A stretch of 64,000 nucleotides of DNA from Candidatus Nanoarchaeia archaeon (GTDB lineage: Archaea > Nanobdellota > Nanobdellia > Pacearchaeales > GW2011-AR1), in NCBI GenBank assembly GCA_035548435.1, contig DASZSY010000003.1, positions 5,311-69,310 of the forward strand, read 5' to 3'. The notes below the pieces were generated by a model, which was not told where the DNA came from, ran no database searches, and worked only from the letters and a program-made list of their open reading frames with translations. Position numbers and translations under genes: made by a program. Shown piece after piece: positions 17,905 to 35,929 of this stretch (its first letter is position 1; each line of letters opens with the position of its first letter).

Positions 17905-17976
17905 TAAACCTTCAGAAAACGACAGTTTAAAAGAATTGTTGTGAAACTTTATAAACCATGTATTTCATAATAAATT

Positions 17977-18249
17977 ATGGCTACAGTAATAGTAATAACA
18001 AAATTAATGCCTGAATCTCCTTCAGTAGACATGGCTGCAATGAAAAAAGCTGCAACTCTTGCTCTAGAAAAAGAAGGTGGAAAGAACATAAGCATTGAAG
18101 AGAAACCAATTGCATTTGGACTTAAAGCATTATACGTAAAAACAGACATGGATGAAAGCAAAGGAACAGATTTAATTGAAGAAGTTCTAGGAAAAATACC
18201 TAATGTTTCCTCAGTAACTATAGAAGACTATAGAAGAGCATTCGGATAA
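17977..18249 (+). CDS. ef1b: Translation elongation factor 1-beta (aEF-1beta)
   Basis: KLMPESPSVDM...EEKPIAFGLKALYV...VEDYRRA-like pattern typical of aEF1B, about 90 aa. Confidence 0.75.
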   Translation: MATVIVITKLMPESPSVDMAAMKKAATLALEKEGGKNISIEEKPIAFGLKALYVKTDMDESKGTDLIEEVLGKIPNVSSVTIEDYRRAFG

Positions 18250-18260
18250 GTCTTTAATTT

Positions 18261-18761
18261 TTGATATACAGATTAAAAAGCAATAATCATTATATAGTTA
18301 AAATAAGAGAGGATTATATGCTAGAAGCACTTCCCTCCTGTTCTAGAAAATCCTGGAGACTTAATTACAAAAGCCCTTCTTTTTTTGACTTTGATGCAAT
18401 AAAATCTGCTTTAGTTTCAGAAAAAAATCTTATTTACACAATCCATCATAAAGATGAAAGAAATCCCGTTTACATTGGAGCCATTGGAAAAGAAATATTT
18501 CTGATTGCAGATAATAGACTTCATGTCTATGGGGAAGAAGCTAGTTTAGATTTAGTAGCAGCTCAAATAACCCAAGGAATATCAACTGTCAGAATTGCAC
18601 AAAACCTACCTGAAATGAAAGTTAGTCAAATTACAGAACCGGACAAAGAATTCCTTGGAAGATTAGAAAAAGATTACCTTACAGTTATTGAATCTATATC
18701 TCAAACCCCTTCCTATTCGAATATACAATCTCTTAAGGCAATAATTGAAGGTTCATCATAA
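18261..18761 (+). CDS. Hypothetical protein
   Basis: 166 aa; no motif. Confidence 0.3.
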   Translation: MIYRLKSNNHYIVKIREDYMLEALPSCSRKSWRLNYKSPSFFDFDAIKSALVSEKNLIYTIHHKDERNPVYIGAIGKEIFLIADNRLHVYGEEASLDLVAAQITQGISTVRIAQNLPEMKVSQITEPDKEFLGRLEKDYLTVIESISQTPSYSNIQSLKAIIEGSS

Positions 18762-18792
18762 AAACTATAAATCCCTTCTTTCTCTATAATCC

Positions 18793-19419
18793 ATGGCATT
18801 AACACAAGAGCAAATAACTGAATTAAAAAACCAACTTCTAAGTCAAGTTCAGCATTTACCTGCAGAGCAAAAAGCAGAAGCAGAACAACAAATACAAGAA
18901 CTTTCTCCAGAAGCACTTGAAATGATGCTCTCACAACAAAGAGAAAAAAATAAAGGTCCTAAAAAAACAATATTTCGTTCGATAGTAGATAATGATGTCT
19001 CAAGCATAGTTGTTGAAGAAAACAAAATAGCAAAGGCAGTAATGGATATAACTCCAATATCAAAGGGCCACGTCCTAATAATTCCAATCAAACCTGTACA
19101 AGATGCCAAGCAACTACCAGTTGCAACATTTTCACTTGCTAAGAAAATTGCACTGCGAATATCAAAGAAACTAAACTCAAAATCAAATCTAATTCAAACT
19201 GAAAATAAATTCGGAGAATCGGTTATACATGTAATTCCGTCATACACTGAAAAAGTTTTAGATCTTTCTTCAGAAAGATCCAAAGCAAAAACTGAAGAGC
19301 TTGAATCAGTTTCATCTCTTATAAGAGCACCTGCAAAAAAACAAAGAATAGAAAAAATAAAAGTATCTAAGTCAGTGCAACCAACCAATGCTGTCCAAAT
19401 AAAAAGAAGAATACCATAA
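18793..19419 (+). CDS. HIT-like hydrolase domain protein with degenerate histidine triad and Lys-rich tail
   Basis: TIFRSIVDNDVSSIVVEENKIAKAVMDITPISKGHVLIIPIKP matches the HIT N-region, but the triad position reads SVIHVIP (only one His). Confidence 0.5.
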   Translation: MALTQEQITELKNQLLSQVQHLPAEQKAEAEQQIQELSPEALEMMLSQQREKNKGPKKTIFRSIVDNDVSSIVVEENKIAKAVMDITPISKGHVLIIPIKPVQDAKQLPVATFSLAKKIALRISKKLNSKSNLIQTENKFGESVIHVIPSYTEKVLDLSSERSKAKTEELESVSSLIRAPAKKQRIEKIKVSKSVQPTNAVQIKRRIP

Positions 19420-20197
19420 ATAGATAGGTAAGCAAGAAGACTGGCACAAATGGAATTCCTTCTTTTATCAAAACTTTTTTATTTGCCTTAATAAGTAAAT
19501 CTATTTCCTTTTCAGACAACCCATGAACTGTTGCTTTTATTGTTTTATTTCCTATTCTAACGTCTTGTTGTAACCAATCTCCAGCAGTTAATTTTTTTGG
19601 AGAGTACAGTTTGTTCATACATTTGTCCACAGAAACAAAGTAAGGATAACATAAAAGAGTGAATGAGATTATTGCAGACAAGCAAGAAATAACTGCATCA
19701 TTTAACTTAAATGACATAAAAGCTAATACGAAAACTATCGGAGCTGAAAGATAATATAGTTTAATTTTTTTCTCAAATTCTTTAATAAAACTTTTTTTAT
19801 TTACAAAAGCAATCCTTATGCTAAATAAAAAGCTGTAAATTGCACCTAAAACAAGTAAAGCTAATATAAAGATAAAAATATTTGTTAGAACTTGGTTAAT
19901 TGTTGTTCCAGGTATAAATAATGAAAGCCCCCTAAGCAACTTTGTGTCCCCTCCAGCAAAAACCTTTCCATAATAAAAAGCTAAAGATAAAACAAATAAA
20001 ACTGCAAAAGATAAAACTCCCATAAACAATACATTCCAATCTTTAGTTTCAATACCATAAAATAGCCTAGCAAAGAAACCTATACCTATAAGTGAGAGTG
20101 TAACCCAGTTTGCAACCTCTTTGCTTCTCAAATCCTGAACTGCTCCAAAAACAAGCCATATTCCTACAATTATTGAAAGAAAAATCCATATAATCAT
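19367..20197 (-). CDS. Type IV prepilin / preflagellin peptidase (PibD/FlaK-like A24 aspartyl protease)
   Basis: Polytopic; Asp about 22 (AVQDLRS) and second catalytic motif AGGDTKLL (GxGDxKL), matching the PibD D23/D80 arrangement. Confidence 0.65.
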   Translation of the reverse strand: MIIWIFLSIIVGIWLVFGAVQDLRSKEVANWVTLSLIGIGFFARLFYGIETKDWNVLFMGVLSFAVLFVLSLAFYYGKVFAGGDTKLLRGLSLFIPGTTINQVLTNIFIFILALLVLGAIYSFLFSIRIAFVNKKSFIKEFEKKIKLYYLSAPIVFVLAFMSFKLNDAVISCLSAIISFTLLCYPYFVSVDKCMNKLYSPKKLTAGDWLQQDVRIGNKTIKATVHGLSEKEIDLLIKANKKVLIKEGIPFVPVFLLTYLFMVFFFLFGQHWLVALT

Positions 20198-20232
20198 GAA
20201 TACCTATATTACCTAACGTTTATTAATCTTAT

Positions 20233-21240
20233 TTGCCTAAAATGAAAATGAAAGAGGATAATCAAAACATTAAATTTAGAGCTTCTCTTTTTTGGATAGT
20301 CCTTGCAACTTTAGTAGTTTTATCGTTTTTTATATTAAAACCGTTTATAATCCCTATAGTTTCAGCCTTTGTTTTAAGCTATCTCGCAATGCCAATATAT
20401 GAAAAGATAAAGAAATCTTCAAATCAGCATATTGCCGCAATACTAACCATAGTACTTCTAATTGGAATTGTTATTATTCCAGTAGCTTTGATGCTTAGCT
20501 CTTTAACTTCTCAAGCTCAATCAGCCATATCAGCATCAGACATTGAATCTTTAACTCAAAAAGTTAAATCTCTTGAAATATTTAATAAATTACATATAAA
20601 TCTAGAAAAACTTAAAGAAAATATTCTTGAAGCTATAATAAATTCCATAGGAAAAACCTTGAAAGAAATTCCTTCAATGATTATCTCTGTGGTTATAACC
20701 ATTTTAGCCACATATTACATGCTTCTTAAGAGAGATTCTATGGTTAAAGTTGTAAAAGAATTTATCCCATTCTCAAATAAAGATAAATTAACCTCTGAAA
20801 TAGCTTCTGCAACAAGGCACATTATGTATGGATATTTCCTTGTGGCATTTCTTGAATTTATAGTAGCAGGAGTTGGTTTTTACGCTGCTGGAATAAACAA
20901 TTATCTCATATTTGCTTCATTAATTTCAATGCTTGCATTCATTCCGGGCCTTGGCCCAGGAATTGTTTGGATTCCAACATTTATTTTGAGCGTTTTATCT
21001 GGGGATTACCTTCAAGCAATAATAATATTAGCAACAGGTCTTACAATTAGTGTTTTGATAGAAACATTCCTTCTAAGTAAAATAATAGGACACAAAGCTT
21101 CAATTCATCCTTTAATACTGTTAATAGGAATCCTGGGAGGAGTTCCAATATTTGGAATATTTGGATTTATTATAGGTCCAATTGTACTAGCATATACAAT
21201 TAAGATTCTTGAGCAGGCTGTTGGCGTGAAGAAAGATTAG
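20233..21240 (+). CDS. AI-2E family transporter (UPF0118/PerM-like permease)
   Basis: About 8 TM helices, FIPGLGPGIVWIP motif. Confidence 0.5.
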   Translation: MPKMKMKEDNQNIKFRASLFWIVLATLVVLSFFILKPFIIPIVSAFVLSYLAMPIYEKIKKSSNQHIAAILTIVLLIGIVIIPVALMLSSLTSQAQSAISASDIESLTQKVKSLEIFNKLHINLEKLKENILEAIINSIGKTLKEIPSMIISVVITILATYYMLLKRDSMVKVVKEFIPFSNKDKLTSEIASATRHIMYGYFLVAFLEFIVAGVGFYAAGINNYLIFASLISMLAFIPGLGPGIVWIPTFILSVLSGDYLQAIIILATGLTISVLIETFLLSKIIGHKASIHPLILLIGILGGVPIFGIFGFIIGPIVLAYTIKILEQAVGVKKD

Positions 21241-21353
21241 CTGTCCTCATAGCTCCGCCACGCTTAAATCTATTGAATCTTGCCTTAGCTCTTTTATCGT
21301 TCTTTGATTTTCTTCTGTCAGGTGTGGCGTAATCCATTTTAGCTTTTAGAAAA

Positions 21354-21806
21354 TTAAGCAGATGTAACGAATGTAGAACAAGCTGCAGGTTCAGAATTTC
21401 CAACAGCAATCAATTGCTTTCCAGACAATTTCTCATTAGTACAATATTCTTTTGCACTGGAAGGTGTAACTCCAGAACATAATGTTGAGAAAGTGCTTGA
21501 TACTGTTTTATCCATAACATTCTGTATAGCAGAATATTCGCATGTAGCATATATGCTTTGTCCATTAACTTCAATTTCTCTGAATTTTTGACAGTAATCT
21601 GCCTTAAGTTCCTGACTTCCCGCAATTTCACAAGCCTTTGCAGCTACATCTAGTTTAGATCCAGCCGAGTCAGTAGCATTGTTAACCTTATCAAAGAATC
21701 CAGTTGCGAATAATATTACAAGAACAACAACTACAATTCCTAAGATCATAAGTAAAATAGTTGTAAGAGTTACTCCCTCCTGTCCCCTTTTATTGTCCAT
21801 AGCCAT
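21354..21806 (-). CDS. Pilin-like protein with class III (type IV prepilin) signal peptide
   Basis: MAMDNKRG|QEGVTLTTILLMILGIVVVVLVIL: basic N-terminus, Gly at -1, Q/E after cleavage site, about 20 hydrophobic residues. Confidence 0.55.
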   Translation of the reverse strand: MAMDNKRGQEGVTLTTILLMILGIVVVVLVILFATGFFDKVNNATDSAGSKLDVAAKACEIAGSQELKADYCQKFREIEVNGQSIYATCEYSAIQNVMDKTVSSTFSTLCSGVTPSSAKEYCTNEKLSGKQLIAVGNSEPAACSTFVTSA

Positions 21807-21821
21807 TAGTTAGATTGAGTT

Positions 21822-22277
21822 TCATTTATTTATAAACCTTGTGAACTCGCCGTTAATTGTAGCTTCAGTGTTCAAATTCCACTCTCTCTTCCATATGCTT
21901 TCTCCCGCCCTTGATTGTACAAACACTCCTTCAACCTCTAATATTACCTTATTTCCATTTCTTGTTATTTTGAACTCTCCATTCTCTATTTTTGAGAAGA
22001 AATTACCCTGTCCTTCTAAGTGCAAGTCTCTTTTTTCTGCAGATTGCCTCAAAACATCAGGAGTAAACCCTTGTTTTATGAAATCTTCAATAATTAAAGA
22101 AGAAGAGCTTTCAATGTATTGCTGCATAACATTTACATCTGTTGACATCTTTGAAATATTCATAGAAGCTGCAGCGTAGTTATCATCTAAATTAAGATAA
22201 GATAATGCTGCAAAAGTGCAAGCTATCAAAGCAATAAGAGGCAAGAAAGCAAATGCAATATTTCCTTTGTTATTCAT
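21822..22277 (-). CDS. Pilin-like protein (class III signal peptide)
   Basis: MNNKG|NIAFAFLPLIALIACTFAAL. Confidence 0.45.
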   Translation of the reverse strand: MNNKGNIAFAFLPLIALIACTFAALSYLNLDDNYAAASMNISKMSTDVNVMQQYIESSSSLIIEDFIKQGFTPDVLRQSAEKRDLHLEGQGNFFSKIENGEFKITRNGNKVILEVEGVFVQSRAGESIWKREWNLNTEATINGEFTRFINK

Positions 22278-22794
22278 CTATACACCTTCCCAAATAAGAT
22301 TCAACATAATATTTTTCCTCTGGATTTAGGAAAGAGAAAGTATAATTTCTAATTTGTGAACTTCCCATGTAACCTTCTCGAGGATTTGCCACAAAGTCTT
22401 GGAAAAATGAATATTCTTTTTCTGTTCCATTTACAAAAACAACTGCTTCTTGCTTATCATTTTTAGGTCCAAATGTTATTTTATAATATAGATATAAACA
22501 TCCATTTAAAGGAGCAATTTCCTTTAATCCAGACCTCATTTCTTCATCAAGTCCATGTTTTCTAACTCCTTCAATAAAAGTCATATTTTCAAACTGCCCA
22601 GAACTGTTTTCAACATTTATTTTTTCAAAAACAACTGGCAAGTAAGTTGTTCCAAAAGCAGCTTCCTTGCTTGACAATGAGTGAGTTCCAAAAACTCCTG
22701 CCATTATTAGTGCATAAACAATCATTATAAGAAATACTGCAATAAAGATAGGCATTGCTTCAATTCCTTTATCTAAAACTCCTCTTCTGTTCAT
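22270..22794 (-). CDS. Pilin-like protein (class III signal peptide)
   Basis: MNRRG|VLDKGIEAMPIFIAVFLIMIVYALIMAGVF. Confidence 0.45.
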   Translation of the reverse strand: MNRRGVLDKGIEAMPIFIAVFLIMIVYALIMAGVFGTHSLSSKEAAFGTTYLPVVFEKINVENSSGQFENMTFIEGVRKHGLDEEMRSGLKEIAPLNGCLYLYYKITFGPKNDKQEAVVFVNGTEKEYSFFQDFVANPREGYMGSSQIRNYTFSFLNPEEKYYVESYLGRCIDE

Positions 22795-23243
22795 TTCTTC
22801 ACCTCCGACTCAACATTATTTCCAGTTAAAACATAAACTTCAGTATCTTTTCCATCTATCTTCAGATTAACTTCAGTCTTTATACATCTAGGATATTGTT
22901 CTCCCTTATCTTGCAGTCCGCAAGCCACGGTATTTCCATACCTAAAGAAAGATTCTGTTTGGGAATTTATAGAAACAATAAATCCTTTTTCAAATAATTT
23001 TTCATCAAAATTACAAGTTAAAAATAAATTAGAAATGTCTTCTTTCTTTAACACTTCAACATTCTTCAAACAATCAATTATTTTTCCAGACAACACTTCA
23101 GATTCTGACACTCTTATATCATACGGCTTTCCAGAAATAAGAAGATCTCCAACAACTATACCTCCAAGTATTATAAGTAGTATAAATAAGAAGTAAACTA
23201 AAAATATTTGGTCTCCAGATTCTGCTTTTTTATTCATTTTCAT
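22791..23243 (-). CDS. Pilin-like protein (class III signal peptide)
   Basis: MKMNKKAESG|DQIFLVYFLFILLIILGGIVVG. Confidence 0.45.
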   Translation of the reverse strand: MKMNKKAESGDQIFLVYFLFILLIILGGIVVGDLLISGKPYDIRVSESEVLSGKIIDCLKNVEVLKKEDISNLFLTCNFDEKLFEKGFIVSINSQTESFFRYGNTVACGLQDKGEQYPRCIKTEVNLKIDGKDTEVYVLTGNNVESEVKK

Positions 23244-23655
23244 TCTCCGTTCTCTTTTCTATTTTAAAGTTCAAGAAATTTTGAGGAACTCCAAGTTCCA
23301 TGCTTGTTTGCGTTACAATAACATCATTAAAGTAAGGATAGCATTTCCCTCCACTAACGCTGAGTTGAACACAAATTCTTCTATTCTTAGCATCAAACAA
23401 AAACATATTTCCAGCTTCCTGAATATCTATCCCATTTCTTTTAGCTATGCTCGTTGCCTTTTGAACTTCAAGTCTTAGCACATCTCCAGCCTGAGATGAA
23501 TCAACAACTCTTGCAAGCTCCTTGGCATAGAAATCTTCCCACAGTGCGCTACTGTTTGCTCTATTAAATAAAAATCCCCATATAAGTAAAACAAAAAAAG
23601 CTAATAAAATCAAATACATTATATTTTCAGTTAGTACATTTGCTTTTTTGTTCAT
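23230..23655 (-). CDS. Pilin-like protein (N-terminal basic + hydrophobic segment)
   Basis: MNKKANVLTENIMYLILLAFFVLLIWGFLF; the Gly at -1 is not obvious. Confidence 0.4.
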   Translation of the reverse strand: MNKKANVLTENIMYLILLAFFVLLIWGFLFNRANSSALWEDFYAKELARVVDSSQAGDVLRLEVQKATSIAKRNGIDIQEAGNMFLFDAKNRRICVQLSVSGGKCYPYFNDVIVTQTSMELGVPQNFLNFKIEKRTENENE

Positions 23656-23656
23656 T

Positions 23657-24196
23657 TTATCCCGTCTTTACTTTATTACTGTCTAATTTTATTTTAGCAA
23701 AAACAGTTTTATCACTGTTGGTTATTAAACTCATCTCACAACTTCCAACGCTTTCAGGCAAAACATATTTTTCCTGTTCCATAGAAGAATCTCCAGCATA
23801 TTCAACATCAACTCTTTGATAATCTAACTTCTGACAAACTCCCTTGCTTTGGCATTTTTCTGCCACATTTCCAGAAGCAGCCAAAGGACAAACGCATATA
23901 CAGCTATCAAAATAACACTTATCGGGTCTACCTTCCTGCCCAGCACTCCAAGCTGCCACAAACCAATTTCTAGAATTAGGGAATCCTTGAACAATAAAAG
24001 AAACATTTCCTTTCTCTGCAAATTTAAGCTTCTCAACAAATAAATCAAGAGTATTTTTGGCATTTCTGTTTTCTGAGTCCATGAAAACGCTAGCCACTTT
24101 AATTATTCCATATACTATCCCCGCAATTATTAAAACTGCAATTAAAATTGAAATAACTTCATTTAATGTTACTTCTCCTTTTCTTTGTTTATTCAT
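23657..24196 (-). CDS. Pilin-like protein (class III signal peptide)
   Basis: MNKQRKG|EVTLNEVISILIAVLIIAGIVYGII. Confidence 0.55.
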   Translation of the reverse strand: MNKQRKGEVTLNEVISILIAVLIIAGIVYGIIKVASVFMDSENRNAKNTLDLFVEKLKFAEKGNVSFIVQGFPNSRNWFVAAWSAGQEGRPDKCYFDSCICVCPLAASGNVAEKCQSKGVCQKLDYQRVDVEYAGDSSMEQEKYVLPESVGSCEMSLITNSDKTVFAKIKLDSNKVKTG

Positions 24197-25245
24197 ATAT
24201 TCCCCTCAAGAGTTCCACAAAGATTTCTAATATTATCTACACTGTATGGAAATGCCTGAAGCAAAGAACATCCTTTATTTGCTTCCTTATTATCTGAAAC
24301 AAATGTTCCGCAATATCCAGTAGCTGCAATTTGACTTTGCCATGAATTGTAAGATCCATAACCTGCAATTCCTACTGCAGCCAATGCAACTGCTCCTGCA
24401 GTATAGGGATTTGAAAATACTAATCTTGTAGCACTTACAGCAGCAACAGGTTTAGCTATGAACGCTCCTCCTCCAATAACTCCTGCAGCTGTAAGTTGAT
24501 TTTCTAAAACTTCAGGTATTGTTTTAGCTTTAATTTGCATAAATATGAAAGCAGTTTCGTTTGCCGCACTGTCTTCTATTTTAACTGAATTGTCTTGTTT
24601 AACTTCTCCTTTTCCTTCTCCCTTGAATGTTGAATAGCTGCTTGTTGCCCCATCAGTCATTGCTTGAACATAAGTCAAAGAACTTCCTGGAGTAGTATAT
24701 TTTTCCATGTATCTGTTTACGTCTACCTTACCCAATACGCTAGCAGAAACATCATTTCCTATTGCAACTCTTGTGCAAACAACACATCTTGATTTTGATT
24801 GTTCGAATCCATATCCTTCCTTTAGAGTTCCAAACAAATCAAGTTTTCCCTGTCCCATCATATTCCAACAGTTGAGCATTGAATTCGCCATTTGTTTTTC
24901 TATTTCTCTTGCCTGCTCTTCTTCTCCGGCAGCATCTTTAGCTTTATTCTTGGGCAACACAATCTTTACAACATTCTTCTCTCCAACAAATTGTTTACAG
25001 TCTCCAGCGCTAGTCTCAACAAGACATATCTTTGATGTGGTACATTGTAGTGGAACAAGTGACTGTGTTCCCTGTTTGACTTCTGCTGCAGTAGCTCTAC
25101 TTACAACTGAAAGCTTACAAACCTCATCAGAAGTATAATTGTCTGTTTTAAGTTGCATATAGAAAGCAAGCAGTATCAAAAATCCAAGTATTGCCAAAAC
25201 AATCATTATTATCTGTGTTGACGTCAATTCTCCTCTTTTAATCAT
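24193..25245 (-). CDS. Large pilin-like protein (class III signal peptide), 350 aa
   Basis: MIKRG|ELTSTQIIMIVLAILGFLILLAF; long Cys-containing, Ser/Thr/Gly-rich C-terminal domain. Confidence 0.55.
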   Translation of the reverse strand: MIKRGELTSTQIIMIVLAILGFLILLAFYMQLKTDNYTSDEVCKLSVVSRATAAEVKQGTQSLVPLQCTTSKICLVETSAGDCKQFVGEKNVVKIVLPKNKAKDAAGEEEQAREIEKQMANSMLNCWNMMGQGKLDLFGTLKEGYGFEQSKSRCVVCTRVAIGNDVSASVLGKVDVNRYMEKYTTPGSSLTYVQAMTDGATSSYSTFKGEGKGEVKQDNSVKIEDSAANETAFIFMQIKAKTIPEVLENQLTAAGVIGGGAFIAKPVAAVSATRLVFSNPYTAGAVALAAVGIAGYGSYNSWQSQIAATGYCGTFVSDNKEANKGCSLLQAFPYSVDNIRNLCGTLEGNI

Positions 25246-25284
25246 AAATTCTCAATGCAAATTCTCTTTATAACTATTACTAGC

Positions 25285-25398
25285 TTAGGTTAGCTTACTG
25301 AAGATGTATATTCCAACGCCAAAGCCTATAATCAAAAATACTATCCAAAGAAGTATTGTAACCAAATTGTCTCCTAAAAGCTGTCCCTTTCTATGCAT
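25285..25398 (-). CDS. Minor pilin-like mini-protein (37 aa), not in ORF track
   Basis: Hand translation gives MHRKG|QLLGDNLVTILLWIVFLIIGFGVGIYIFSKLT; essentially only the class III signal and helix. Confidence 0.45.
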   Translation of the reverse strand: MHRKGQLLGDNLVTILLWIVFLIIGFGVGIYIFSKLT

Positions 25399-26200
25399 TG
25401 CACTTCTCTCCTGCCTTGTTTAAATCAACAAGCAAGTATCTTCCTTCGCTTAAGTAACTTGTTCCAACCTTCTTCAAACAAAATTGAGTGCCCTGGACAG
25501 TTATTGCCGGGTTCTTAAACACGCTATCTCTCCAAATTGTTGCATTTTGGTTTATAACTATAGATTGGACCTCGTTAAATGGATTTACAGGGGCACTATC
25601 AGATGAAGATTGAACCACTCCATAAAATTCTCCATTATTATTTCCATTAAAGAATAATATTCCATACTCAGATTTTCCTTTTGAAACAAAAGCAATAACT
25701 GTTCCCCTTGAATATACTGGAGCAGTGTTTAAGGTCCATTGTCCAATTCCATAACCTATCCATCCTCCAACATTATACCAAGAAGGTTTTTCAGGTTCTA
25801 AACTCTTTGATTTTGCAATCTCAGTTACCTTAACATTATATTCTCCATTGTTAAATATTTCAGCAGAGTTCCTCTTAGACTTATCAAAATAATAATCCTC
25901 GAATATCTGATTCATTTCAGATTCTGTTGTTTCTTTCTTTAGGCCATCAAACTTTGTGTTTGTGGTTAAATCATTCCATCTTTCTCCATCATAAAGTTGA
26001 ACCTTGTCCATTTCAATATCGTATCTTACAATTCCTATCTTCATAGGCTCCTTTGAAGTATCATTGAATCCGGGAGTATTATCAAAATAATTCTGTATTT
26101 TATCAAACCCTTTCATAGGCCCAAGAAATATGATCAAAAGTAAAACAACTGCAATAATAGCTGAAAGAAAAACCCAATTTATCTGTGCTTTATTTTTCAT
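25391..26200 (-). CDS. Pilin-like protein (class III signal peptide)
   Basis: MKNKA|QINWVFLSAIIAVVLLLIIFLG (Ala at -1, Gln at +1). Confidence 0.5.
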   Translation of the reverse strand: MKNKAQINWVFLSAIIAVVLLLIIFLGPMKGFDKIQNYFDNTPGFNDTSKEPMKIGIVRYDIEMDKVQLYDGERWNDLTTNTKFDGLKKETTESEMNQIFEDYYFDKSKRNSAEIFNNGEYNVKVTEIAKSKSLEPEKPSWYNVGGWIGYGIGQWTLNTAPVYSRGTVIAFVSKGKSEYGILFFNGNNNGEFYGVVQSSSDSAPVNPFNEVQSIVINQNATIWRDSVFKNPAITVQGTQFCLKKVGTSYLSEGRYLLVDLNKAGEKCNA

Positions 26201-26204
26201 TTTC

Positions 26205-26357
26205 TTATCCTGCCCTCAGCATATTTTTAATGTAGTCTATTGCTCCGTTTCCTTTTCCACTTAAAGTCATATAAAGAATAATCATAAGTATCAAAACTCC
26301 AATTCCTATAATCCATGGAACTAATGTTTCCCATACTTGCCCTCTTTTATTATTCAT
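26205..26357 (-). CDS. Minor pilin-like mini-protein (50 aa), not in ORF track
   Basis: Hand translation gives MNNKRG|QVWETLVPWIIGIGVLILMIILYMTLSGKGNGAIDYIKNMLRAG. Confidence 0.45.
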   Translation of the reverse strand: MNNKRGQVWETLVPWIIGIGVLILMIILYMTLSGKGNGAIDYIKNMLRAG

Positions 26358-26440
26358 TCTTTTCCGAAAGAGATTTAGTTATTAAGTTTATCGTCTATGC
26401 ATAAAAGTTATAAGTCAAAAGACACTTTATTGTTCACATT

Positions 26441-27265
26441 ATGGTTTCATACAAACTAAGTCTTCATTCGCATACCTCTAATTTCGCTCATTTTCTAGCT
26501 TTCAGTCCCAACAAAAAAGAATATCTTGAAGAGTTAATAAGAAAATTGACAAAAAAACATGGAAACATTGTTCTGGGCGTTTCAAACTTCAATGATGATA
26601 GATATGGCCTTCTCCTCAAGGCAACTTCTCTTCTTTCAAAAGAATATAAAGTAAATACAGACCACAAAGAATGTTTCTTCTCAGTAAAATATCAAAATAA
26701 GAGTATTCATTTTGTCAAATCAGATGAAATAAACACTGAAAAAGGACATATCTTAATAGTAGGATATACAAAAAGCATCCATAATCATAATCTTCATGAT
26801 ATTCTAAAGGCAGCACACAAACAACATTGTATAATTATAGCAAATCATCCTCTTCACACTCCGAGCACTTCCTATTTTTTTGTTAAGAAAATCTTTGGAC
26901 TTCATTCAGACATAAGTTTAACTTCAGAAGACATTAAAAAACACAAAAAAGATTTTGATGCAGTTGAATTAAACTCTTATTTTCCAGAAGATTGGCATAA
27001 AATAAGAGAGTTCAGTAAAAAAACAGGAATTCCAACAGTATCTGATTCAGATTCCCACTTCCTCAATGAAATGTTCACTTCATGGTATGAAATAAAAGAT
27101 CTTTCTTTTTCCAGCCCAAATAAATTCAAGAAAAGTCTTAAGAAAGGCCTTAGGAAAGGTCTTCATATTCATGCAGCCAAATATGGATTTTTGGCAGTTT
27201 ACAAGCATGTTCTGCAAGTAATGATAGAACACTTTGGAAGAAAATTAGGAATATATGTAAATTAG
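26441..27265 (+). CDS. PHP-domain metal-dependent phosphoesterase
   Basis: N-terminal LSLHSHTSNF (H-x-H of the PHP fold); further His/Asp positions (IANHP, DSDSH). Confidence 0.5.
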   Translation: MVSYKLSLHSHTSNFAHFLAFSPNKKEYLEELIRKLTKKHGNIVLGVSNFNDDRYGLLLKATSLLSKEYKVNTDHKECFFSVKYQNKSIHFVKSDEINTEKGHILIVGYTKSIHNHNLHDILKAAHKQHCIIIANHPLHTPSTSYFFVKKIFGLHSDISLTSEDIKKHKKDFDAVELNSYFPEDWHKIREFSKKTGIPTVSDSDSHFLNEMFTSWYEIKDLSFSSPNKFKKSLKKGLRKGLHIHAAKYGFLAVYKHVLQVMIEHFGRKLGIYVN

Positions 27266-27321
27266 CTGTTCTTTGCAGCGCCGTGCAGTAAAGGTTTATA
27301 ACATATTTTTCCCTTGTTTGA

Positions 27322-29433
27322 ATGGTAAAAAAGATGGGAAATACAGACGAAATTATTAGTAAATACAAGAAAAGAATTGAATCTCAACTTTCAGATTCTG
27401 TCGTTTCTTCTTCAACAGAATATCAAGCTTTCAAAGGAGAAATGATTCCGCAGGTATCAAGATATGAGAAATTTGCCCTTTCTCTTGGAAATTTAATTAA
27501 AATAAACGTAGCAGAAAAAGATAAAGTAAAAATTCAAAGAGAACTTGATGCAGCACACGCAAGCGTTACTGCTTCCCAAGCAATTGCTCTTGCAATGTTT
27601 TCTCTTCTTACCTTATTTTTCCTAACTGTTGCAGCAAGTGTTTCAATATATCTTATAACTGGAACTGCTCCAATTCTTTTTGGAGTGCTAGGTTTAATGA
27701 TAAGCTTCTTTGCTTTCTACTATGCATACAGCATGCCTAAAAGATTAGCAAACGAGTGGAGACTTCAAGCAAGCTCACAAATGGTTCCTGCAATTCTTTA
27801 CCTTGTGGTTTATATGAAACATACTTCAAACCTAGAAAGAGCAATTGAATTTGCTTCACAACATCTTGAGGGTCCTTTAGCACTTGATTTCAAAAAATTA
27901 CTTTACAATGTAGAAATAGGAAAGTATTCCACAGTAAAACAATCTCTTGATTTGTATTTAGAGCAATGGAGAGATTACGCTCCAGAATTCATTGAATCTT
28001 TCCACTTAATTGAATCCTCTCTCTACGAACCTTCAGAGTCAAGAAGAGTACAAATCCTTGAAAAGTCTCTGCAAGTAATTCTTGATGGAGTTTATGAAAA
28101 AATGCTCAAATATTCTAGAAGTATTCGTTCCCCACTTACAAACGTATACATGCTTGGAATAATTCTTCCAACTCTTGGTCTCGCTCTTCTTCCTCTTGCT
28201 TCAGCTCTTATGGGAGGAGTGATAAAATGGACTCATGTCTTCCTTCTTTTCAACATAATTGTTCCTTTCCTTGTATTTTACATGTCTTCTGAAGTTTTAT
28301 TGCGTCGTCCTGGAGGTTATGGAGAAACTTCACTGCTTGAAAAAAACCCAGAGTATTCTTCATATGCTTCAAAAACTCCTTGGATTCTAGCTTCAATAAT
28401 TGCAATTCCTCTTTTGATAATAGGATTCTTGCCATTTATTTTACAGTCAGATATTTCTTTAGAGTCTCTTGGACTAGGAATGTTTGGAGAATTCCTTTTT
28501 GACTTCAAAACAATTGCCGGAGTGAGAGTAGGCCCATTTGGTCCAGGTTCTGTTCTCCTTTCTCTTTGTATTCCTATTGCTCTAGGAACTTTCTTTGCAG
28601 TTGCCTATAGTCAAAAAACTAAAAAGTTAATCAAAGCTCGTGAGCAAACAAAAACTCTTGAAGAAGAATTCACAAACTCTCTTTTCCAGTTAGGAAACAG
28701 ACTTGGAGATGGAGTTCCAGCAGAAATTGCTTTCGCTAAAGTTGCTGAAAGCACACAAGGACAAATGACTCACAATTTCTTCTCCGTTGTAAACAAAAAT
28801 ATACAACAAGGTGGAATGTCAGTTGAAAAAGCAATATTTGACCAAAGACAAGGAGCAATAATATACTATCCTTCTGCTTTAATTGCCACCGCAATGAGAA
28901 TTCTTGTTGAATCAGTTAAGAAAGGATTACAAGTTGCAGCCCGTTCTTTAATGTCAATATCTGAATATGTAAAAAACATAGATAAAATAAATCAACGTCT
29001 CAAAGACTTGCTAGCAGAAATAGTTTCAGACATGCGTTCAAATATGACTTTCCTTGCTCCTCTTCTAGCAGGAATTGTTGTCGGTCTTTCAGTGATGATA
29101 ACTTCCATACTTAACAAACTTCAATCCTATCAAACAACCGTTGGTTCTGGCGCGTCTGGCCTTGGAGCATTTGGTTCAATTCCTCAATTGTTCAATGTAT
29201 CAGAAATGGTTCCACCTTATTTCCTTCAAATGAGTATTGGTATTTACATTGTTGAAATAATCTTCATATTAACAATGGCCCTTGTAACAATTGATGCAGG
29301 CCGTGATCCTCTGCGTGAGAAGTTCGACATTGCCCAGAATATAAAGCGCGGCCTCACCCTTTACATCTTAACAGCAGCAGTGTCAACCATTGCTCTGACA
29401 TTATTATCTACAATAGCGTTGGGAAGCCTGTGA
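27322..29433 (+). CDS. Polytopic membrane platform protein, FlaJ/TadC (T2SS-F)-like
   Basis: 703 aa with large cytoplasmic segments alternating with clusters of TM helices. Its size, topology and position in the pilus locus are the basis for this call. Contextual only. Confidence 0.45.
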   Translation: MVKKMGNTDEIISKYKKRIESQLSDSVVSSSTEYQAFKGEMIPQVSRYEKFALSLGNLIKINVAEKDKVKIQRELDAAHASVTASQAIALAMFSLLTLFFLTVAASVSIYLITGTAPILFGVLGLMISFFAFYYAYSMPKRLANEWRLQASSQMVPAILYLVVYMKHTSNLERAIEFASQHLEGPLALDFKKLLYNVEIGKYSTVKQSLDLYLEQWRDYAPEFIESFHLIESSLYEPSESRRVQILEKSLQVILDGVYEKMLKYSRSIRSPLTNVYMLGIILPTLGLALLPLASALMGGVIKWTHVFLLFNIIVPFLVFYMSSEVLLRRPGGYGETSLLEKNPEYSSYASKTPWILASIIAIPLLIIGFLPFILQSDISLESLGLGMFGEFLFDFKTIAGVRVGPFGPGSVLLSLCIPIALGTFFAVAYSQKTKKLIKAREQTKTLEEEFTNSLFQLGNRLGDGVPAEIAFAKVAESTQGQMTHNFFSVVNKNIQQGGMSVEKAIFDQRQGAIIYYPSALIATAMRILVESVKKGLQVAARSLMSISEYVKNIDKINQRLKDLLAEIVSDMRSNMTFLAPLLAGIVVGLSVMITSILNKLQSYQTTVGSGASGLGAFGSIPQLFNVSEMVPPYFLQMSIGIYIVEIIFILTMALVTIDAGRDPLREKFDIAQNIKRGLTLYILTAAVSTIALTLLSTIALGSL

Positions 29434-29467
29434 GATGGAAAATAAAGATAGAAAATTTTCTCTTCTG

Positions 29468-29815
29468 TTAATTAGATTTTTTATACTTCACGATTTTATA
29501 TTTAAAACCTTCTAAGGTAATATTATCTAATTCTGAACCATATTTCATAATACCCAATCTATCTTCAACAAAACCCAAGATTGCACCTATTTGGCGAAAT
29601 TCTCTCTCTAAATCATTTTTTAGCATAGAAAAACCACCATCCGTAAAAGCCCAATAGCCTCCAACATAATTATTAATAAACTTAAGATTTTTTATATTAA
29701 CATGAGTAGCATATCCTTCAACGATTGCATCTCCGTCTTTATCACAAAAATAAAAACGAATCTCTTTAAAATTTTTTAAATCTTTTTTATTTAAGACATT
29801 TTGCATATTTGACAT
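29468..29815 (-). CDS. Hypothetical protein
   Basis: Last gene of the ATPase transcription unit; no motif. Confidence 0.25.
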   Translation of the reverse strand: MSNMQNVLNKKDLKNFKEIRFYFCDKDGDAIVEGYATHVNIKNLKFINNYVGGYWAFTDGGFSMLKNDLEREFRQIGAILGFVEDRLGIMKYGSELDNITLEGFKYKIVKYKKSN

Positions 29816-29856
29816 TTTAATTAACAGCAGCCTATTAATTTAAGCCTTTTCACCAA

Positions 29857-30129
29857 CTAGACAACACAACTAAATATTCGTGGATGAACAAATTCAAAAT
29901 AAAGATACACTAACCAAATAAGAAACATGTAGGGACTAATATATCCTAAAAAATAAGCGTCAAACCCTTGAATACTCCAGATTAAGAGCAGTATGAAGGT
30001 ATATATAATTGCTAAATAAAGATAAATCTTATTTGATATCGGATCTAATTTTTGGAGATTTTGTTGTGATTTAATATATTTTTTATTATGCATTTCATCT
30101 CCTTTCCTACACCATTCTAAGAAACCCAT
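29857..30129 (-). CDS. Small membrane protein
   Basis: Two TM helices. Confidence 0.3.
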   Translation of the reverse strand: MGFLEWCRKGDEMHNKKYIKSQQNLQKLDPISNKIYLYLAIIYTFILLLIWSIQGFDAYFLGYISPYMFLIWLVYLYFEFVHPRIFSCVV

Positions 30130-30169
30130 GCTAAGCTATATAACTTATTTTATTTAAATCTGTCTTCAA

Positions 30170-30460
30170 CTAATTTTCAACATCACCAACATAAACTGAT
30201 TTTAGAACATCGTTGCCCTTCTTACAAACACAGACTTCAGAATCTGGGTCGTAGAAACCCCATTTTGTATCTTCCCAATAAGTTGTTAAGGCAGAGTTAT
30301 CTTCGCAAACTTCATAACTACAATAATTGTCCATTCTTTCTTCATGAGCAATTGAAACTCCACCAATAATAAAAATTGAAGTTTCAAGCAAAAATAAAAT
30401 TATAAAAATTATTGCAGTAATTCTCCAACCAGAATTAACTTTATTGCTTTCTAAAGGCAT
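30170..30460 (-). CDS. Small N-terminally anchored Cys-rich protein (possible pilin-like)
   Basis: MPLESNKVNSG|WRITAIIFIILFLL then C..C....C.C cysteines. Confidence 0.3.
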   Translation of the reverse strand: MPLESNKVNSGWRITAIIFIILFLLETSIFIIGGVSIAHEERMDNYCSYEVCEDNSALTTYWEDTKWGFYDPDSEVCVCKKGNDVLKSVYVGDVEN

Positions 30461-30490
30461 TATTAATCAAATTAATACTTCTATTTAAAC

Positions 30491-32764
30491 CTATTTCATC
30501 CCAATCTGCTTGTAAAACCATTTCTTCCACTCAGGGAAAACATGTTCACTCAAAGGAAGGCCGTACTTTTCTCTTGCTTCGTCTGAAAGTCTGTGGAAAG
30601 CAGTGTTTGACTTAACTATGAACTCAGCCTCTAGAATATCATCTCTTCCCAGCGTTTCAGCAGCTTTAACAATTTCTTCTTTTATCATTGCCCTAAGGTT
30701 AATGTTATCATATACAGCATCCCAGTTTCCAGCCCATCCTTTTACATTTCCTGCAATGCTTTTTAGTATTTCACTATCTCCATTCATAAGTTCAGGAGTT
30801 GGCTCTAGCTCATCTTTCTCAACATTATATCTTAGAAGGTCTACAAATCCTCCCTCTCTCGCAGGATCGTTGTCCCAGTGCTTTCTTACTTCAGTAACCT
30901 GCATAACTCTTTTTATTGCATGCATTCCATCTGCAGTTTTAACTGGATTTGCAACTATAATCAAATCAGTAGCTTTGAAAGAAGTTGCAGGCACTCCAAG
31001 GTCGTTTACAACTCTATCAAATACTCCGTAGGGACTATCTCCGTGTATTGTTCCAGCAACAACGTTTGCGAGTGCTCCAACTCTCATTGCTTCATATAGT
31101 GCCTTAGCTTCAGTACTTCTTACTTCTCCAACAATTAAAGCGCTGTCTCCAAGTCTAAGGCTTGTTCTTATTCCCTCGCTTGCTTCAACTTCGCTGCTTC
31201 CTTCAACAAGAGCAGAACGCACTTTCATTCGGAGTACATCATAACCTATTTTCCTAAGAGCATCAATTGGAAGTTCTAAAGTATCTTCAATAACTATTGT
31301 TCTAAACTTAGGCATTATTTCAAGGAGCAAGCTTCCGAGCAGTGAAGTTTTTCCGCTGCTTCTTGTTCCAGCAACAAGCAATGTTCTATTTCCATCAATC
31401 AAAAATGAAAGAAGTCCTGCTGCAAATGGAGTAAGCATTTTATGTTTTACAAATAAAGGTAATGTCCAAGGTTTGTCTCTGTGTCTTCTAATTGAATAAG
31501 CAAGTCCTGATGGAGAAAGAGGCTCTTTTATTGCTGCAACTCTTGCTCTTATTTCTCCAAATACCATATCAGTGTCAAGAATAGGATTTGCTTCGTCTAA
31601 AGGGCGACCGGATTGCAATCTTAATTTCGCAGCCCATGAATCTCCATCTTCATAACTTGGAATGATGTTTGTTATACATTCTTCATAACTTTGATGTCTT
31701 ATGAATATTGGATTCTGTGCAATTGGAGCGTTTATTGAAATATCTTGTATCTTATCATCAAGAAGAAGTATTTCAAGTAATCCAAATCCTATAGTATATC
31801 TTACAAGAATATTTGAAAGTCTTATAAGTTCCTTATGTGAGAGAGAAACATTTCTTGTTCTTGAAAGCTCTGAAAGTAAATCTCTTGAAACATTAAAGAA
31901 AACCTGCCTTGTTCTTTCAGGGTCTGTAAATTCCTCTGCCTTTGGTCTATGTTCAGTCAAAACATTTCTTGCCAGTCCCAAGAGTAAATGATGTTCTTCA
32001 GTTAAAGAATATTCAGGAGGAAGAATATGATAAATAAATTTAGGGTCATCTATTTTCTTAAGTATTGTAACTGGAATTGTGTCTCCTTCATACGAAAGAG
32101 TATATTGGTCAACAAGCTCTGCATCATTTGGAAGCTGAGCAACAAGTCTTGTGAATGTGAAATTAGGTAATATGTCTGGTCTGAATGCTGCCTTGTACAA
32201 TTCCCTACTTCCATATGAGTATCTTGTCATTGAACTCTGGAAAGATTTCATAAAATTAGTGTTTTGCAGCATTAAAGCAAATTTTTCCAAGAATCTTATG
32301 TATTGAAGTAATCCAGAAGCATTCATTACTTCCCCAGAGCTTAATTGGTTTCTAAGTGCTGAAATTCTACTTTTTAGTTCAGAGTAACAAGCTAGTGGAT
32401 CCTGCTTAAGAAGAGAAAGAAGGTAAGAAAGGTCAGCGTGAACCTCTGGAACATTTCCAAAAAGAGAAAGTCTTTCAGTTGAAAGTATATTTTCTTGTTT
32501 TGTTAAAAAAGAATAAAGTCTTGATATATCCAAAAGTAGTTTCACCTGCTCAAAACCATGGTGATAATTTCTTTGTTGAACAAAAACTATTCTAGAAATT
32601 GAAGGGTGTTCCTGCAAAACATCTATTGTTCTTGCAAAAACAGAAGGCATATCAGCTAGTGAAGGAACAAATGGAGCATTAAGATAGTTGACATACAAAA
32701 CTTCTTCTCCCTGTCTTCTTTCTACCTCAACAGAGTATAGCTCGGCCCCTTCTTTAAACATCAT
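30491..32764 (-). CDS. Type II/IV secretion system ATPase, FlaI/PilB/VirB11 family, with approx 300-aa N-terminal extension
   Basis: Walker A GTRSSGKTSLL, Asp box IVIEDTLEL, Walker B/His box ALIVGEVRSTEA...GTIHG. Confidence 0.8.
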   Translation of the reverse strand: MMFKEGAELYSVEVERRQGEEVLYVNYLNAPFVPSLADMPSVFARTIDVLQEHPSISRIVFVQQRNYHHGFEQVKLLLDISRLYSFLTKQENILSTERLSLFGNVPEVHADLSYLLSLLKQDPLACYSELKSRISALRNQLSSGEVMNASGLLQYIRFLEKFALMLQNTNFMKSFQSSMTRYSYGSRELYKAAFRPDILPNFTFTRLVAQLPNDAELVDQYTLSYEGDTIPVTILKKIDDPKFIYHILPPEYSLTEEHHLLLGLARNVLTEHRPKAEEFTDPERTRQVFFNVSRDLLSELSRTRNVSLSHKELIRLSNILVRYTIGFGLLEILLLDDKIQDISINAPIAQNPIFIRHQSYEECITNIIPSYEDGDSWAAKLRLQSGRPLDEANPILDTDMVFGEIRARVAAIKEPLSPSGLAYSIRRHRDKPWTLPLFVKHKMLTPFAAGLLSFLIDGNRTLLVAGTRSSGKTSLLGSLLLEIMPKFRTIVIEDTLELPIDALRKIGYDVLRMKVRSALVEGSSEVEASEGIRTSLRLGDSALIVGEVRSTEAKALYEAMRVGALANVVAGTIHGDSPYGVFDRVVNDLGVPATSFKATDLIIVANPVKTADGMHAIKRVMQVTEVRKHWDNDPAREGGFVDLLRYNVEKDELEPTPELMNGDSEILKSIAGNVKGWAGNWDAVYDNINLRAMIKEEIVKAAETLGRDDILEAEFIVKSNTAFHRLSDEAREKYGLPLSEHVFPEWKKWFYKQIGMK

Positions 32765-32849
32765 CTCAAATACAGAGAGAGAACAGATTAAATATCTTGC
32801 TCATGTTATCGATAGCACGGTTTATAAAGTCTAAAAGGTTCATGTCTAA

Positions 32850-33161
32850 ATGGAAGAGGATGGTAGCCAGGTCTTTATGGACCTGAACACTAGAATAAGA
32901 GAACTTGAAGAAAGACAAAGACTCTTAAAAGATAGGACATTTTTAATTGGACGTGGAGTGGTAGACATAAAAGAAAAAGCTTCTTTGGAATTAAGAGAAT
33001 TAAGAAAAGCAGTTACAATATTGCAACAAGAAAATGCACAACTTAAAGAAACTATGCAGCTAATGTCTGAAAAATTAAATAACACCTCAAATAAAGAAGA
33101 ACTTCAAATGGTGTTAAGACAACTTAACATATTAAGAGGAGTAAAGAATGGGAACAGTTGA
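32850..33161 (+). CDS. Coiled-coil protein
   Basis: Heptad-like ELEERQRLLKD...LRELRKAVTILQQENAQLKE. Confidence 0.35.
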   Translation: MEEDGSQVFMDLNTRIRELEERQRLLKDRTFLIGRGVVDIKEKASLELRELRKAVTILQQENAQLKETMQLMSEKLNNTSNKEELQMVLRQLNILRGVKNGNS

Positions 33162-33786
33162 AGAAGTAGCTTTCATGAAAAGAGAAGGAAGATCAGATGC
33201 AGAAATAGCTTCAAATCTAAGAAAGAAAGGTTTACCTGAACAAGAAATAACTTCGGCAATATCCCAAACAAAAATAAAAGAAGCCGTTGCAGCCCCTTCC
33301 GCAGAAGAAGCACATACTCAAGAATATGGTGAAGAGCAAATGTCTCCTTCTCTTATGTCTCCTGGAGCACAGTATCAATCAGCTCCTGTAGAAGAACAGC
33401 CGCAGCAGGAAGCAGCTGTAGAACAACAATCTGCTTATCCTGAATATCAATCATATGCCCAAACAGGAAGCTACGACCAACAACAATACGCTTCTGGAAA
33501 TATTGGAGCAGAAGTCATAACAGAGATTGCAGATCAAGTTGTAGCAGAAAAACTTTCTCCAATTCTAGGTGCAATGGATAAAATACTTGATATGAAATCA
33601 AATACCGAAGCACAGCTGAGATACCTTGATGAAAGGCTAAAAAGAATTGAAAAAATAATAGATAGACTTCAACTTTCTGTTCTGCAGCGCGTGGGAGAAT
33701 ATGTTTCAAACGTGGAAGAAATAAAACAAGAAATGCAAGAAACTCAAAAAACCTTCAAAGCACTAGTTGATAAAAAAGGAATGTAA
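33148..33786 (+). CDS. Acidic Q/E-rich coiled-coil protein
   Basis: Low-complexity Q/E/A/Y stretch followed by a coiled coil; overlaps the previous gene by 14 nt. Confidence 0.35.
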   Translation: MGTVEEVAFMKREGRSDAEIASNLRKKGLPEQEITSAISQTKIKEAVAAPSAEEAHTQEYGEEQMSPSLMSPGAQYQSAPVEEQPQQEAAVEQQSAYPEYQSYAQTGSYDQQQYASGNIGAEVITEIADQVVAEKLSPILGAMDKILDMKSNTEAQLRYLDERLKRIEKIIDRLQLSVLQRVGEYVSNVEEIKQEMQETQKTFKALVDKKGM

Positions 33787-33807
33787 AAATTTGATTTTCA
33801 GTAATCT

Positions 33808-34227
33808 TTAATTTATTCTAAAAAATCTAACTTCATCTCCATATTCCGCTAAAACATCTTCAACTCTGTGTTCGTATGCATGTCCATATCCCCACTTAGA
33901 TAATATCTGACCTGGCTGCATAATTCTTCCTATGTGCGCTTGTTCTCTCATTCCTGGCAATCCAGAAATGTAAATTGCTAAATCTCCAACTTCTGGAACA
34001 TAAACTTCTCTATGTCCATCACAAAATAACACTACATCATCAAAGTAAACTGGCTTTGGAAATTGATTCCATTCAAATAAATAAGTGAGACATTGAACTC
34101 CAATCATTTCATCCATTTTTCTATTCCTTCTTTCTGCTAAGGTTATTCCATCAAATACAAATTCATCTGGATTAAGTCCATGAACTCTTGAAATTTCAAT
34201 TCTTCTTTCAGTTATAGGTAAATGCAT
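33808..34227 (-). CDS. Possible CHAP/NlpC-P60-like papain-fold domain protein
   Basis: GVQCLTYLFEW (QC catalytic-Cys context) and PEVGDLAIYISG...AHIGRIM (pGDl...gHvgiv-like His region). No signal peptide. Slightly higher GC. Tentative. Confidence 0.3.
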   Translation of the reverse strand: MHLPITERRIEISRVHGLNPDEFVFDGITLAERRNRKMDEMIGVQCLTYLFEWNQFPKPVYFDDVVLFCDGHREVYVPEVGDLAIYISGLPGMREQAHIGRIMQPGQILSKWGYGHAYEHRVEDVLAEYGDEVRFFRIN

Positions 34228-34255
34228 TATTTTCTTCTAAAAAGTCAGTTTATAA

Positions 34256-34792
34256 CTATTTCTTTCCAGGCTTTGCTGCGTCCATGGCAGGTTTAGCAAT
34301 TATGAAACTTATAACTGCAGTTATTATAATCAAAAGAATAGCTCCAAACACACGAGGAGAGAAAATCCAATCAGTCACAACTAAAATGTTTGGATCTCCA
34401 CCTGCAGGAGAGTTCCAAGGCAAGTATGGGCTAAAGTAAGATGAAAATACAACCACTCCAGAAACTACAAAGAAAACAATCAATACAATTCCAAATACTT
34501 TAGGCATTGCTTTATCCCATTCTTTAAAGTCGAAAAATCCTTTAGTCATTGCAAGAATAAGGAAAAAGCTCACAAGAAGTACTGCAAACCATGGGATAAT
34601 ACTTGAAACATATGTTCTAGGTCCAGCTGCACTTACAAATACTGTAGCAATGATGAAAGAAGTGAAAAGATGCATAAATTCAGAAGTGAATATCTTTGCT
34701 GTTTTAGATGCAGCATAAACTACAATGAAAACAACAAAATAAGTTAGTAAAGGTACAAAATATCCAAATGAAGTTAAATCTATTCCTGCCAT
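34256..34792 (-). CDS. Paralogous 4-TM membrane protein (copy 3 of 3)
   Basis: Same length class and TM layout as the two upstream copies. Confidence 0.4.
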   Translation of the reverse strand: MAGIDLTSFGYFVPLLTYFVVFIVVYAASKTAKIFTSEFMHLFTSFIIATVFVSAAGPRTYVSSIIPWFAVLLVSFFLILAMTKGFFDFKEWDKAMPKVFGIVLIVFFVVSGVVVFSSYFSPYLPWNSPAGGDPNILVVTDWIFSPRVFGAILLIIITAVISFIIAKPAMDAAKPGKK

Positions 34793-34796
34793 ATTG

Positions 34797-35342
34797 TTAA
34801 CTTCTTACAACTCCAGGTGGAGTCTTTCCAGCTGGGCCTTTTATAGGAGCGCTTTCCCAATTCCAAGGTTCTGCAATAACTACAATCAAAGCAAGTAAAA
34901 GTCCTCCAATGATTACAACAGAACCATATTGGTCCCACCAAACTCCTCCGTCAGATAAGTTCCAACCAAGGAAGTCAAATGCCTTGTAAATAACTGTCAC
35001 AGCTATAACTGCAGAAACTGCCCACATTGTTCCATACCATCCCTTAAGCCATTCTCCAGGTATAAACATTGCAGACATTATAAGTAAAACAACAAGCACT
35101 GAAAGACCTATTCCAAATCTTGGGAATATCTCAGAGAAAAATACAGGAACATAATCAAATCTTAAAGATATCAAAGCAACTGCCAAGGCAACTGTTAATG
35201 TAACTCCTTTGTTTGAACCAAGAACATTTGTAGCACTAAGTATTCCAAAAACTACTGCAAAAATTATCAAGAAGGGCAATACATAATCAAATACTCCATA
35301 TGCTTCCCAATCAGCTATAACGTTAACAAAACTAAATACCAT
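34797..35342 (-). CDS. Paralogous 4-TM membrane protein (copy 2 of 3)
   Basis: FDYVLPFLIIFAVVFGILS aligns with GVLPFILVFSLVYAVL of copy 1. Confidence 0.4.
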   Translation of the reverse strand: MVFSFVNVIADWEAYGVFDYVLPFLIIFAVVFGILSATNVLGSNKGVTLTVALAVALISLRFDYVPVFFSEIFPRFGIGLSVLVVLLIMSAMFIPGEWLKGWYGTMWAVSAVIAVTVIYKAFDFLGWNLSDGGVWWDQYGSVVIIGGLLLALIVVIAEPWNWESAPIKGPAGKTPPGVVRS

Positions 35343-35401
35343 AAATCATATACCTCTGTGTCGTTTATATATATTTCGTTAGAAAATTAGTTCTATTAAC
35401 C

Positions 35402-35929
35402 TTACTTCTTTCCTTCTTCGCTTCCGCCAGATTTTCCGCTGAAAGCCATCACAACTGCAATAGCGCCAGCCACCAAAACAACAAATAATATGTTGCTCCA
35501 AAGTCCATCACTACTTGTATCAAAATAATCTGATATTGTATCTATACTTCCAGTGTAATAAAGAACTGCTCCTGCAGTAACTATTGCTGCCAAGATTCCT
35601 ATAGCATATTTAACATATTTGTGCATTTCAAACTTTCCAGGCTCATATGCCATTCCCCACATTACCATAAATACAAGTAAAACAACAAGACCTACAGCCA
35701 ACACAGGAACAAGTTGAACAATAACACTAACTGCGTTAGCAAATGCAATTGTCAAAAGTGCAACAGAAAATGAAACTAATGCATCAAGTTGATTTTTTCC
35801 TTCTCCTAGAACCTTTGATTTTTGTAAAACTGCATAAACAAGTGAGAAAACAAGAATGAAAGGTAAAACTCCTTCAACAAAGAAAGGACTTGATAGGATT
35901 GTAAAACCGCCGTATGTTGGACTAGCCAT
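35402..35929 (-). CDS. Paralogous 4-TM membrane protein (copy 1 of 3)
   Basis: See the two downstream copies; tandem triplication. Confidence 0.4.
   Translation of the reverse strand: MASPTYGGFTILSSPFFVEGVLPFILVFSLVYAVLQKSKVLGEGKNQLDALVSFSVALLTIAFANAVSVIVQLVPVLAVGLVVLLVFMVMWGMAYEPGKFEMHKYVKYAIGILAAIVTAGAVLYYTGSIDTISDYFDTSSDGLWSNILFVVLVAGAIAVVMAFSGKSGGSEEGKK

Follow-up and report, generated by a model that had tools for sequence, protein, structure and literature searches.

A probable type IV filament locus with ten pilin-like genes in a Pacearchaeota/Woesearchaeota-type DPANN archaeon

One locus of the analysed stretch of DNA (64 kb; hereafter, the window), which belongs to the core chromosome of a Pacearchaeota/Woesearchaeota-type DPANN archaeon, probably constitutes a complete archaeal type IV filament (TFF) gene set, with filament assembly and adhesion as part of this best explanation (Table 1). 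The locus contains the components used here to recognise a TFF: an A24 class III signal peptidase with two catalytic aspartates, a GspE/PilB/FlaI/TadA-type ATPase, a polytopic platform with T2SSF (GspF/PilC/TadB-C/FlaJ) domains, and subunits carrying a class III signal peptide (a short charged leader, Gly or Ala at -1, and ~20 hydrophobic residues). The cassette of peptidase, ten pilin-like genes, platform and ATPase is syntenic in ~40 related MAG loci, with a median of 10 pilin-like ORFs per locus (39 loci) in the same size order; identity across loci is ~65% for the platform and ATPase and 26-49% for the pilins. An earlier, sequence-only reading, all of whose listed ORFs are present at the same coordinates, had regarded the multiplicity of pilins as unusual; it is instead a conserved design of the whole clade, and multi-pilin Epd/clade 1 systems provide a precedent (PMC4858521).

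Table 1. Features of the locus (positions within the window). A slash marks the cleavage site predicted by the class III rule.
Feature	Position	Strand	Length (aa)	Remarks
Class III signal (prepilin) peptidase	19367..20197	-	276	PibD/FlaK type; Pfam Peptidase_A24 (PF01478)
p1, pilin-like protein	21354..21806	-	150	Last gene; alternative major-pilin candidate; MAMDNKRG/QEGVTLTTILLMILGIVVVVLV
p2, pilin-like protein	21822..22277	-	151	MNNKG/NIAFAFLPLIALIACTF
p3, pilin-like protein	22270..22794	-	174	Fastest-diverging position; MNRRG/VLDKGIEAMPIFIAVFLIM
p4, pilin-like protein	22791..23243	-	150	MKMNKKA/ESGDQIFLVYFLFILL
p5, pilin-like protein	23230..23655	-	141	MNKKA/NVLTENIMYLILLAFF
p6, pilin-like protein	23657..24196	-	179	7 Cys; MNKQRKG/EVTLNEVISILIAVLII
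p7, pilin-like protein	24193..25245	-	350	Cys-rich; Gly/Ala-rich low-charge segment
p8, micro-pilin	25285..25398	-	37	8-nt overlap with p9; MHRKG/QLLGDNLVTILLWIVFLII
p9, pilin-like protein	25391..26200	-	269	Length-variable position; MKNKA/QINWVFLSAIIAVVLLL
p10, micro-pilin	26205..26357	-	50	First operon gene; Flp-sized candidate shaft subunit; MNNKRG/QVWETLVPWIIGIG
Platform protein, polytopic	27322..29433	+	703	FlaJ/PilC/TadBC type; two T2SSF-like cytoplasmic domains
Secretion/assembly ATPase	30491..32764	-	757	Pfam T2SSE; N-terminal extension ~200-300 aa
Possible accessory: two overlapping coiled-coil ORFs	32850..33786	+	103, 212	Synteny only; divergent from ATPase
Possible accessory: three tandem 4-5-TM membrane proteins	34256..35929	-	178, 181, 175	Synteny only

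Peptidase, platform and ATPase

The peptidase matches PF01478 (E 3.3e-11; 44 bits, cut-off 26.5) and NCBIfam FlaK_Arch (E 6e-8, far under the equivalog cut-off), has 6 predicted TM helices, and, among 80 related loci, has its gene as a syntenic neighbour in 44. D22 and G82-G83-D84 (motif A-G-G-D) are invariant in 40 orthologues; the PibD/FlaK-like peptidase with both catalytic aspartates (D22 and D84) described in the sequence-only reading is confirmed. The platform protein has ~9 predicted TM helices and was found in 567 species genomes. The window's own 703-aa protein has no Pfam match (T2SSF is not reached); T2SSF-like domains are supported at the family level and by fold, in line with the earlier identification of a platform. 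The platform (+) and ATPase (-) genes are convergent and not co-transcribed, which, like the missing Pfam match of the platform, counts against a TFF gene set; we take this arrangement to be unusual compared with flaHIJ, aapEF and upsEF.

The ATPase matches Pfam T2SSE (PF00437; E 5e-14; 52 bits, cut-off 24.9), and carries Walker A (G466TRSSGKT), Walker B (IVIED, 490-494), GEVR (546) and His box (TIH, 572) motifs; its orthologues share 66% identity over the full length in 69 loci. The best NCBIfam match is the TadA family TIGR03819 (E 7e-40; 137 bits, equivalog cut-off 373), and the closest solved structures are archaeal afGspE (2OAP, E 2e-28), CpaF (8e-27) and FlaI (5e-16), with VirB11 at E 3e-4; residues 1-300 have no meaningful PDB relative. 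The protein previously read as a FlaI-like ATPase sides with archaeal GspE/CpaF/FlaI, far from VirB11.

An archaellum (for motility), or a locus for VirB11-type conjugation or type IV secretion, would be suggested by the match of the ATPase to NCBIfam FlaI (E 9e-36), by its weak match to VirB11/TrbB, and by the flaI/flaJ/flaK labels common for such genes in MAG papers (PMC11606122), but we consider these identities so improbable as to be almost negligible. The ATPase scores 124 bits with the FlaI model, whose equivalog cut-off is 550, and profile searches with the ORFs of 16972-35929 gave no Arch_flagellin or KaiC/FlaH-type match; across these ORFs and 131 orthologous pilin-like proteins there was no Pfam or NCBIfam match to archaellin (PF01917) or the FlaF/G/C/D/E families. 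Because archaellin and FlaH are both absent, the locus is not an archaellum, as had already been proposed; nor did these searches reveal FlaF/G, FlaC/D/E or FlaX. For type IV secretion/conjugation, VirB11 models are far under their cut-offs, VirB11 structures trail afGspE (E 3e-4 vs 2e-28), and neither a VirB4/VirD4-like gene nor any other T4SS gene is found in the locus.

Pilin-like array and neighbouring genes

The ten consecutive minus-strand ORFs p1 to p10 (21354-26357) all begin with M-x(1-6)-[KR]-[GA], and in each a strongly hydrophobic run of 16 or more residues comes next. Our class III signal rule is a loose pattern of our own making, distinct from FlaFind, and predicts cleavage sites by that rule alone; of the 355 window ORFs with 35 aa or more, 13 pass it. 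Since 10 of these 13 are the consecutive genes of the array (vs 3 of the remaining 345 ORFs), the clustering is far beyond chance. By the FlaFind pattern, p1 and p10 may fail at +2/+3. The N-terminal signature given in the sequence-only reading holds for all ten in its basic leader, Gly/Ala at -1 and hydrophobic helix; its Gln/Glu at +1 is not uniform (Q or E in seven, N in two, V in one). These class III-type N-termini are kept family by family in orthologues: of 368 orthologous ORFs, 282 have G and 86 have A at -1, and Q, E or D predominate at +1. The nine junctions within the array span -14 to +39 nt, with overlaps at five, and this tight packing fits a single operon.

Profile-profile likeness among eight pilin families is restricted to the first ~10-90 residues (~30-55 for most pairs), and each alignment starts no later than residue four of either profile; such confinement to the N-terminus would be expected of type IV pilins. 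In profile and PDB searches, none of the ten proteins matches a Pfam or NCBIfam pilin family or a solved pilin, which likewise speaks against a TFF; for p1, the PDB gave a lone weak match, aligned in register, to 8FJS (E 0.68), a Pilin_N protein from an archaeon.

The best conserved pilin is p10 (median 49% identity, 48 loci), which has no Pfam, NCBIfam or PDB relative; it conserves the motif KRG-x-x-W-[DE]-x-L-[IV]-P-W-I-I and an acidic residue at +4/+5. Orthologues at the p9 position span 227-605 aa, with 26% median identity over half of their length and no known domain in the enlarged variants. Most related loci have a class-III-like ORF of 35-46 aa at the p8 position; p8 itself was missed by the depositor's gene caller. 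In the universally conserved p7, ten Cys are conserved, and a segment of ~67 residues is hydrophobic, rich in Gly/Ala and low in charge. Orthologues of p6 keep the motif in 47 loci, those of p5 share 35% identity (48 loci), and those of p4 and p2 occur in 42 and 24-30 loci, respectively. Recognisable p3 orthologues number only 2-3, yet in most loci that position is still filled by a class-III-like ORF of 160-236 aa. In p1, conservation is higher over the first 35 residues (top-residue frequency 0.57) than in the variable C-terminal part (0.30); its orthologues are 105-230 aa long, and duplicated in some loci.

Archaeal surface proteins that do not form filaments also use class III signals (bindosome; 10.64898/2026.04.22.720090), and the ten proteins might be peptidase-processed, surface-anchored proteins organised at the envelope by the ATPase and platform in a bindosome-like manner or as a stator/scaffold. 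The unrelated C-terminal domains of the large subunits and the odd Gly/Ala-rich hydrophobic segment of p7 would suit such an arrangement, which we nevertheless judge highly improbable: none of the ten has a substrate-binding-protein domain or any other domain of recognisable function, and the 37- and 50-aa subunits barely exceed a polymerisation helix, a size that is sensible only for a filament. The ATPase is also far from the bindosome (Bas) model, with BasE at 64.7 bits against a cut-off of 1000.

The PHP phosphoesterase gene, which the sequence-only reading had counted as part of the pilus locus, gave marginal matches (PHP_C, 21.7 bits vs cut-off 21.3; CehA/McbA, E 8e-5) and is absent from all 80 related loci; like three small ORFs, it is a strain-specific insertion and not a component. 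The coiled-coil ORF pair adjoins the ATPase in ~60 loci, including rearranged ones, and has no consistent Pfam family; whether it belongs to the pilus system is uncertain. The three 4-5-TM proteins are alike in size and topology, lack Pfam matches, are syntenic in ~50 loci, and their genes stay near the ATPase block despite rearrangement in loci L063, L073 and L074; their membership is uncertain because the housekeeping genes RPA, EF-1beta and HIT are equally syntenic. Of the three additional matches to the class III rule, two overlap the HIT gene (18713-18934) and the 212-aa coiled-coil gene (33173-33313), each on the opposite strand.

Proposed filament assembly and function

In the TFF that we favour, the ten prepilin-like proteins would be inserted into the membrane, and the A24 aspartic peptidase (D22/D84) would cut their 4-8-residue basic leaders after Gly/Ala (-1). 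A hexameric GspE/TadA/FlaI-type ATPase would then dock on the platform at its two T2SSF-like cytoplasmic domains, with ATP driving the extraction of mature subunits from the membrane; their N-terminal hydrophobic helices would hold the resulting helical filament together. For the shaft, which would consist of a small, well-conserved subunit, the 50-aa p10 is the likeliest candidate and p1 the alternative. The larger subunits p2-p7 and p9, rich in Cys and fast-evolving, may serve as minor pilins for assembly priming, the tip or base, and binding specificity. We infer that the filament would most likely serve surface or cell-to-cell (host) adhesion, although no adhesin-like domain was recognised.

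The same machine might instead build only a short pseudopilus (endopilus), a T2SS/Com-like piston that would cross the S-layer and serve DNA uptake or protein export, with no long adhesive pilus. A single operon that encodes, in a fixed order, one small subunit and many 'minor' ones conserved as orthologues presumably resembles GspG-K and ComGC-GG; moreover, the ATPase resembles CpaF and is single, with no retraction paralogue in the locus. Nucleotide synthesis is often missing from DPANN genomes, as a general statement (PMC8561730), and DNA/nucleotide scavenging would therefore be useful. Overall, we consider an endopilus unlikely, since the conserved block contains no ComEC/ComEA-like, nuclease or secreted-substrate gene, and the variable, fast-evolving large subunits better suit exposed binding proteins. 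We also know of no precedent for a T2SS-like pseudopilus in archaea.

A bolder form of the adhesive TFF is decidedly doubtful: the cassette might be a general host-contact organelle of Pacearchaeota/Woesearchaeota-type DPANN, in which a p7 tip segment would insert into the partner membrane and start cytoplasmic bridges, and the shaft would be a Flp-like micro-pilin of 44 residues with no relationship to known archaeal pilins. The bridges meant are those seen in other DPANN-host pairs.

Comparison with known filament systems

Epd/clade 1 ('system 1') pili occur in Methanococcus, Methanobacteriales and Thermococcales, and have been reported in a few DPANN archaea (PMC4858521; 10.64898/2026.04.22.720090). 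As in those systems, the present locus is complex, with many (at least five) minor pilins, a very small major pilin candidate, and a dedicated peptidase gene within or close to it. However, it has one 703-aa platform gene rather than two tadC-like genes, and a short PibD/FlaK-type peptidase (6 predicted TM) rather than the 9-TM EppA (PMC4858521), and on both counts it falls outside Epd/clade 1; its pilins also have no detectable similarity to known families, its ten pilin genes lie in one operon, and its ATPase and platform genes are convergent.

The Tad/Flp pilus (CpaF/TadA ATPase, TadB/TadC platform, Flp pilin, TadV peptidase) is approached in the TadA-family match of the ATPase, the CpaF structure among its closest relatives, the Flp-sized (37-50 aa) subunits and the single ATPase. 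The locus is nonetheless not assigned to Tad/Flp: the TadA score is well below its cut-off (137 bits vs 373), the platform is a single fused protein with two T2SSF domains rather than separate TadB and TadC, there is no Flp_Fap Pfam match, no TadZ, secretin or TadE/F family is present, and the host is archaeal.

With the Sulfolobales Aap and Ups pili and the Haloferax PilA/PilB/PilC adhesion pili, the locus shares the four-part core of peptidase, pilins, T2SSF platform and ATPase, and an adhesive or cell-contact role that is here proposed. In those systems, the pilins number 1-6 and mostly belong to known families, and the ATPase and platform genes are co-transcribed as a pair; here, the ten pilins look unrelated, the 757-aa ATPase carries a long N-terminal extension, and the platform is far larger. 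In Aap, a single ATPase can also power retraction (PMC11178785).

The locus further resembles the DPANN 'dark matter' type IV pilus islands of Makarova, Wolf and Koonin 2019 (PMC6393860, Fig. 2A), in which ATPase and TadC can be recognised and the neighbouring unannotated signal-peptide ORFs were inferred to be divergent pilins. Those islands were presented as an illustrative example, without family definitions, clade-wide conservation analysis or a subunit-by-subunit description. The locus represents a genuine, under-annotated surface machine of a kind that is not fundamentally new.

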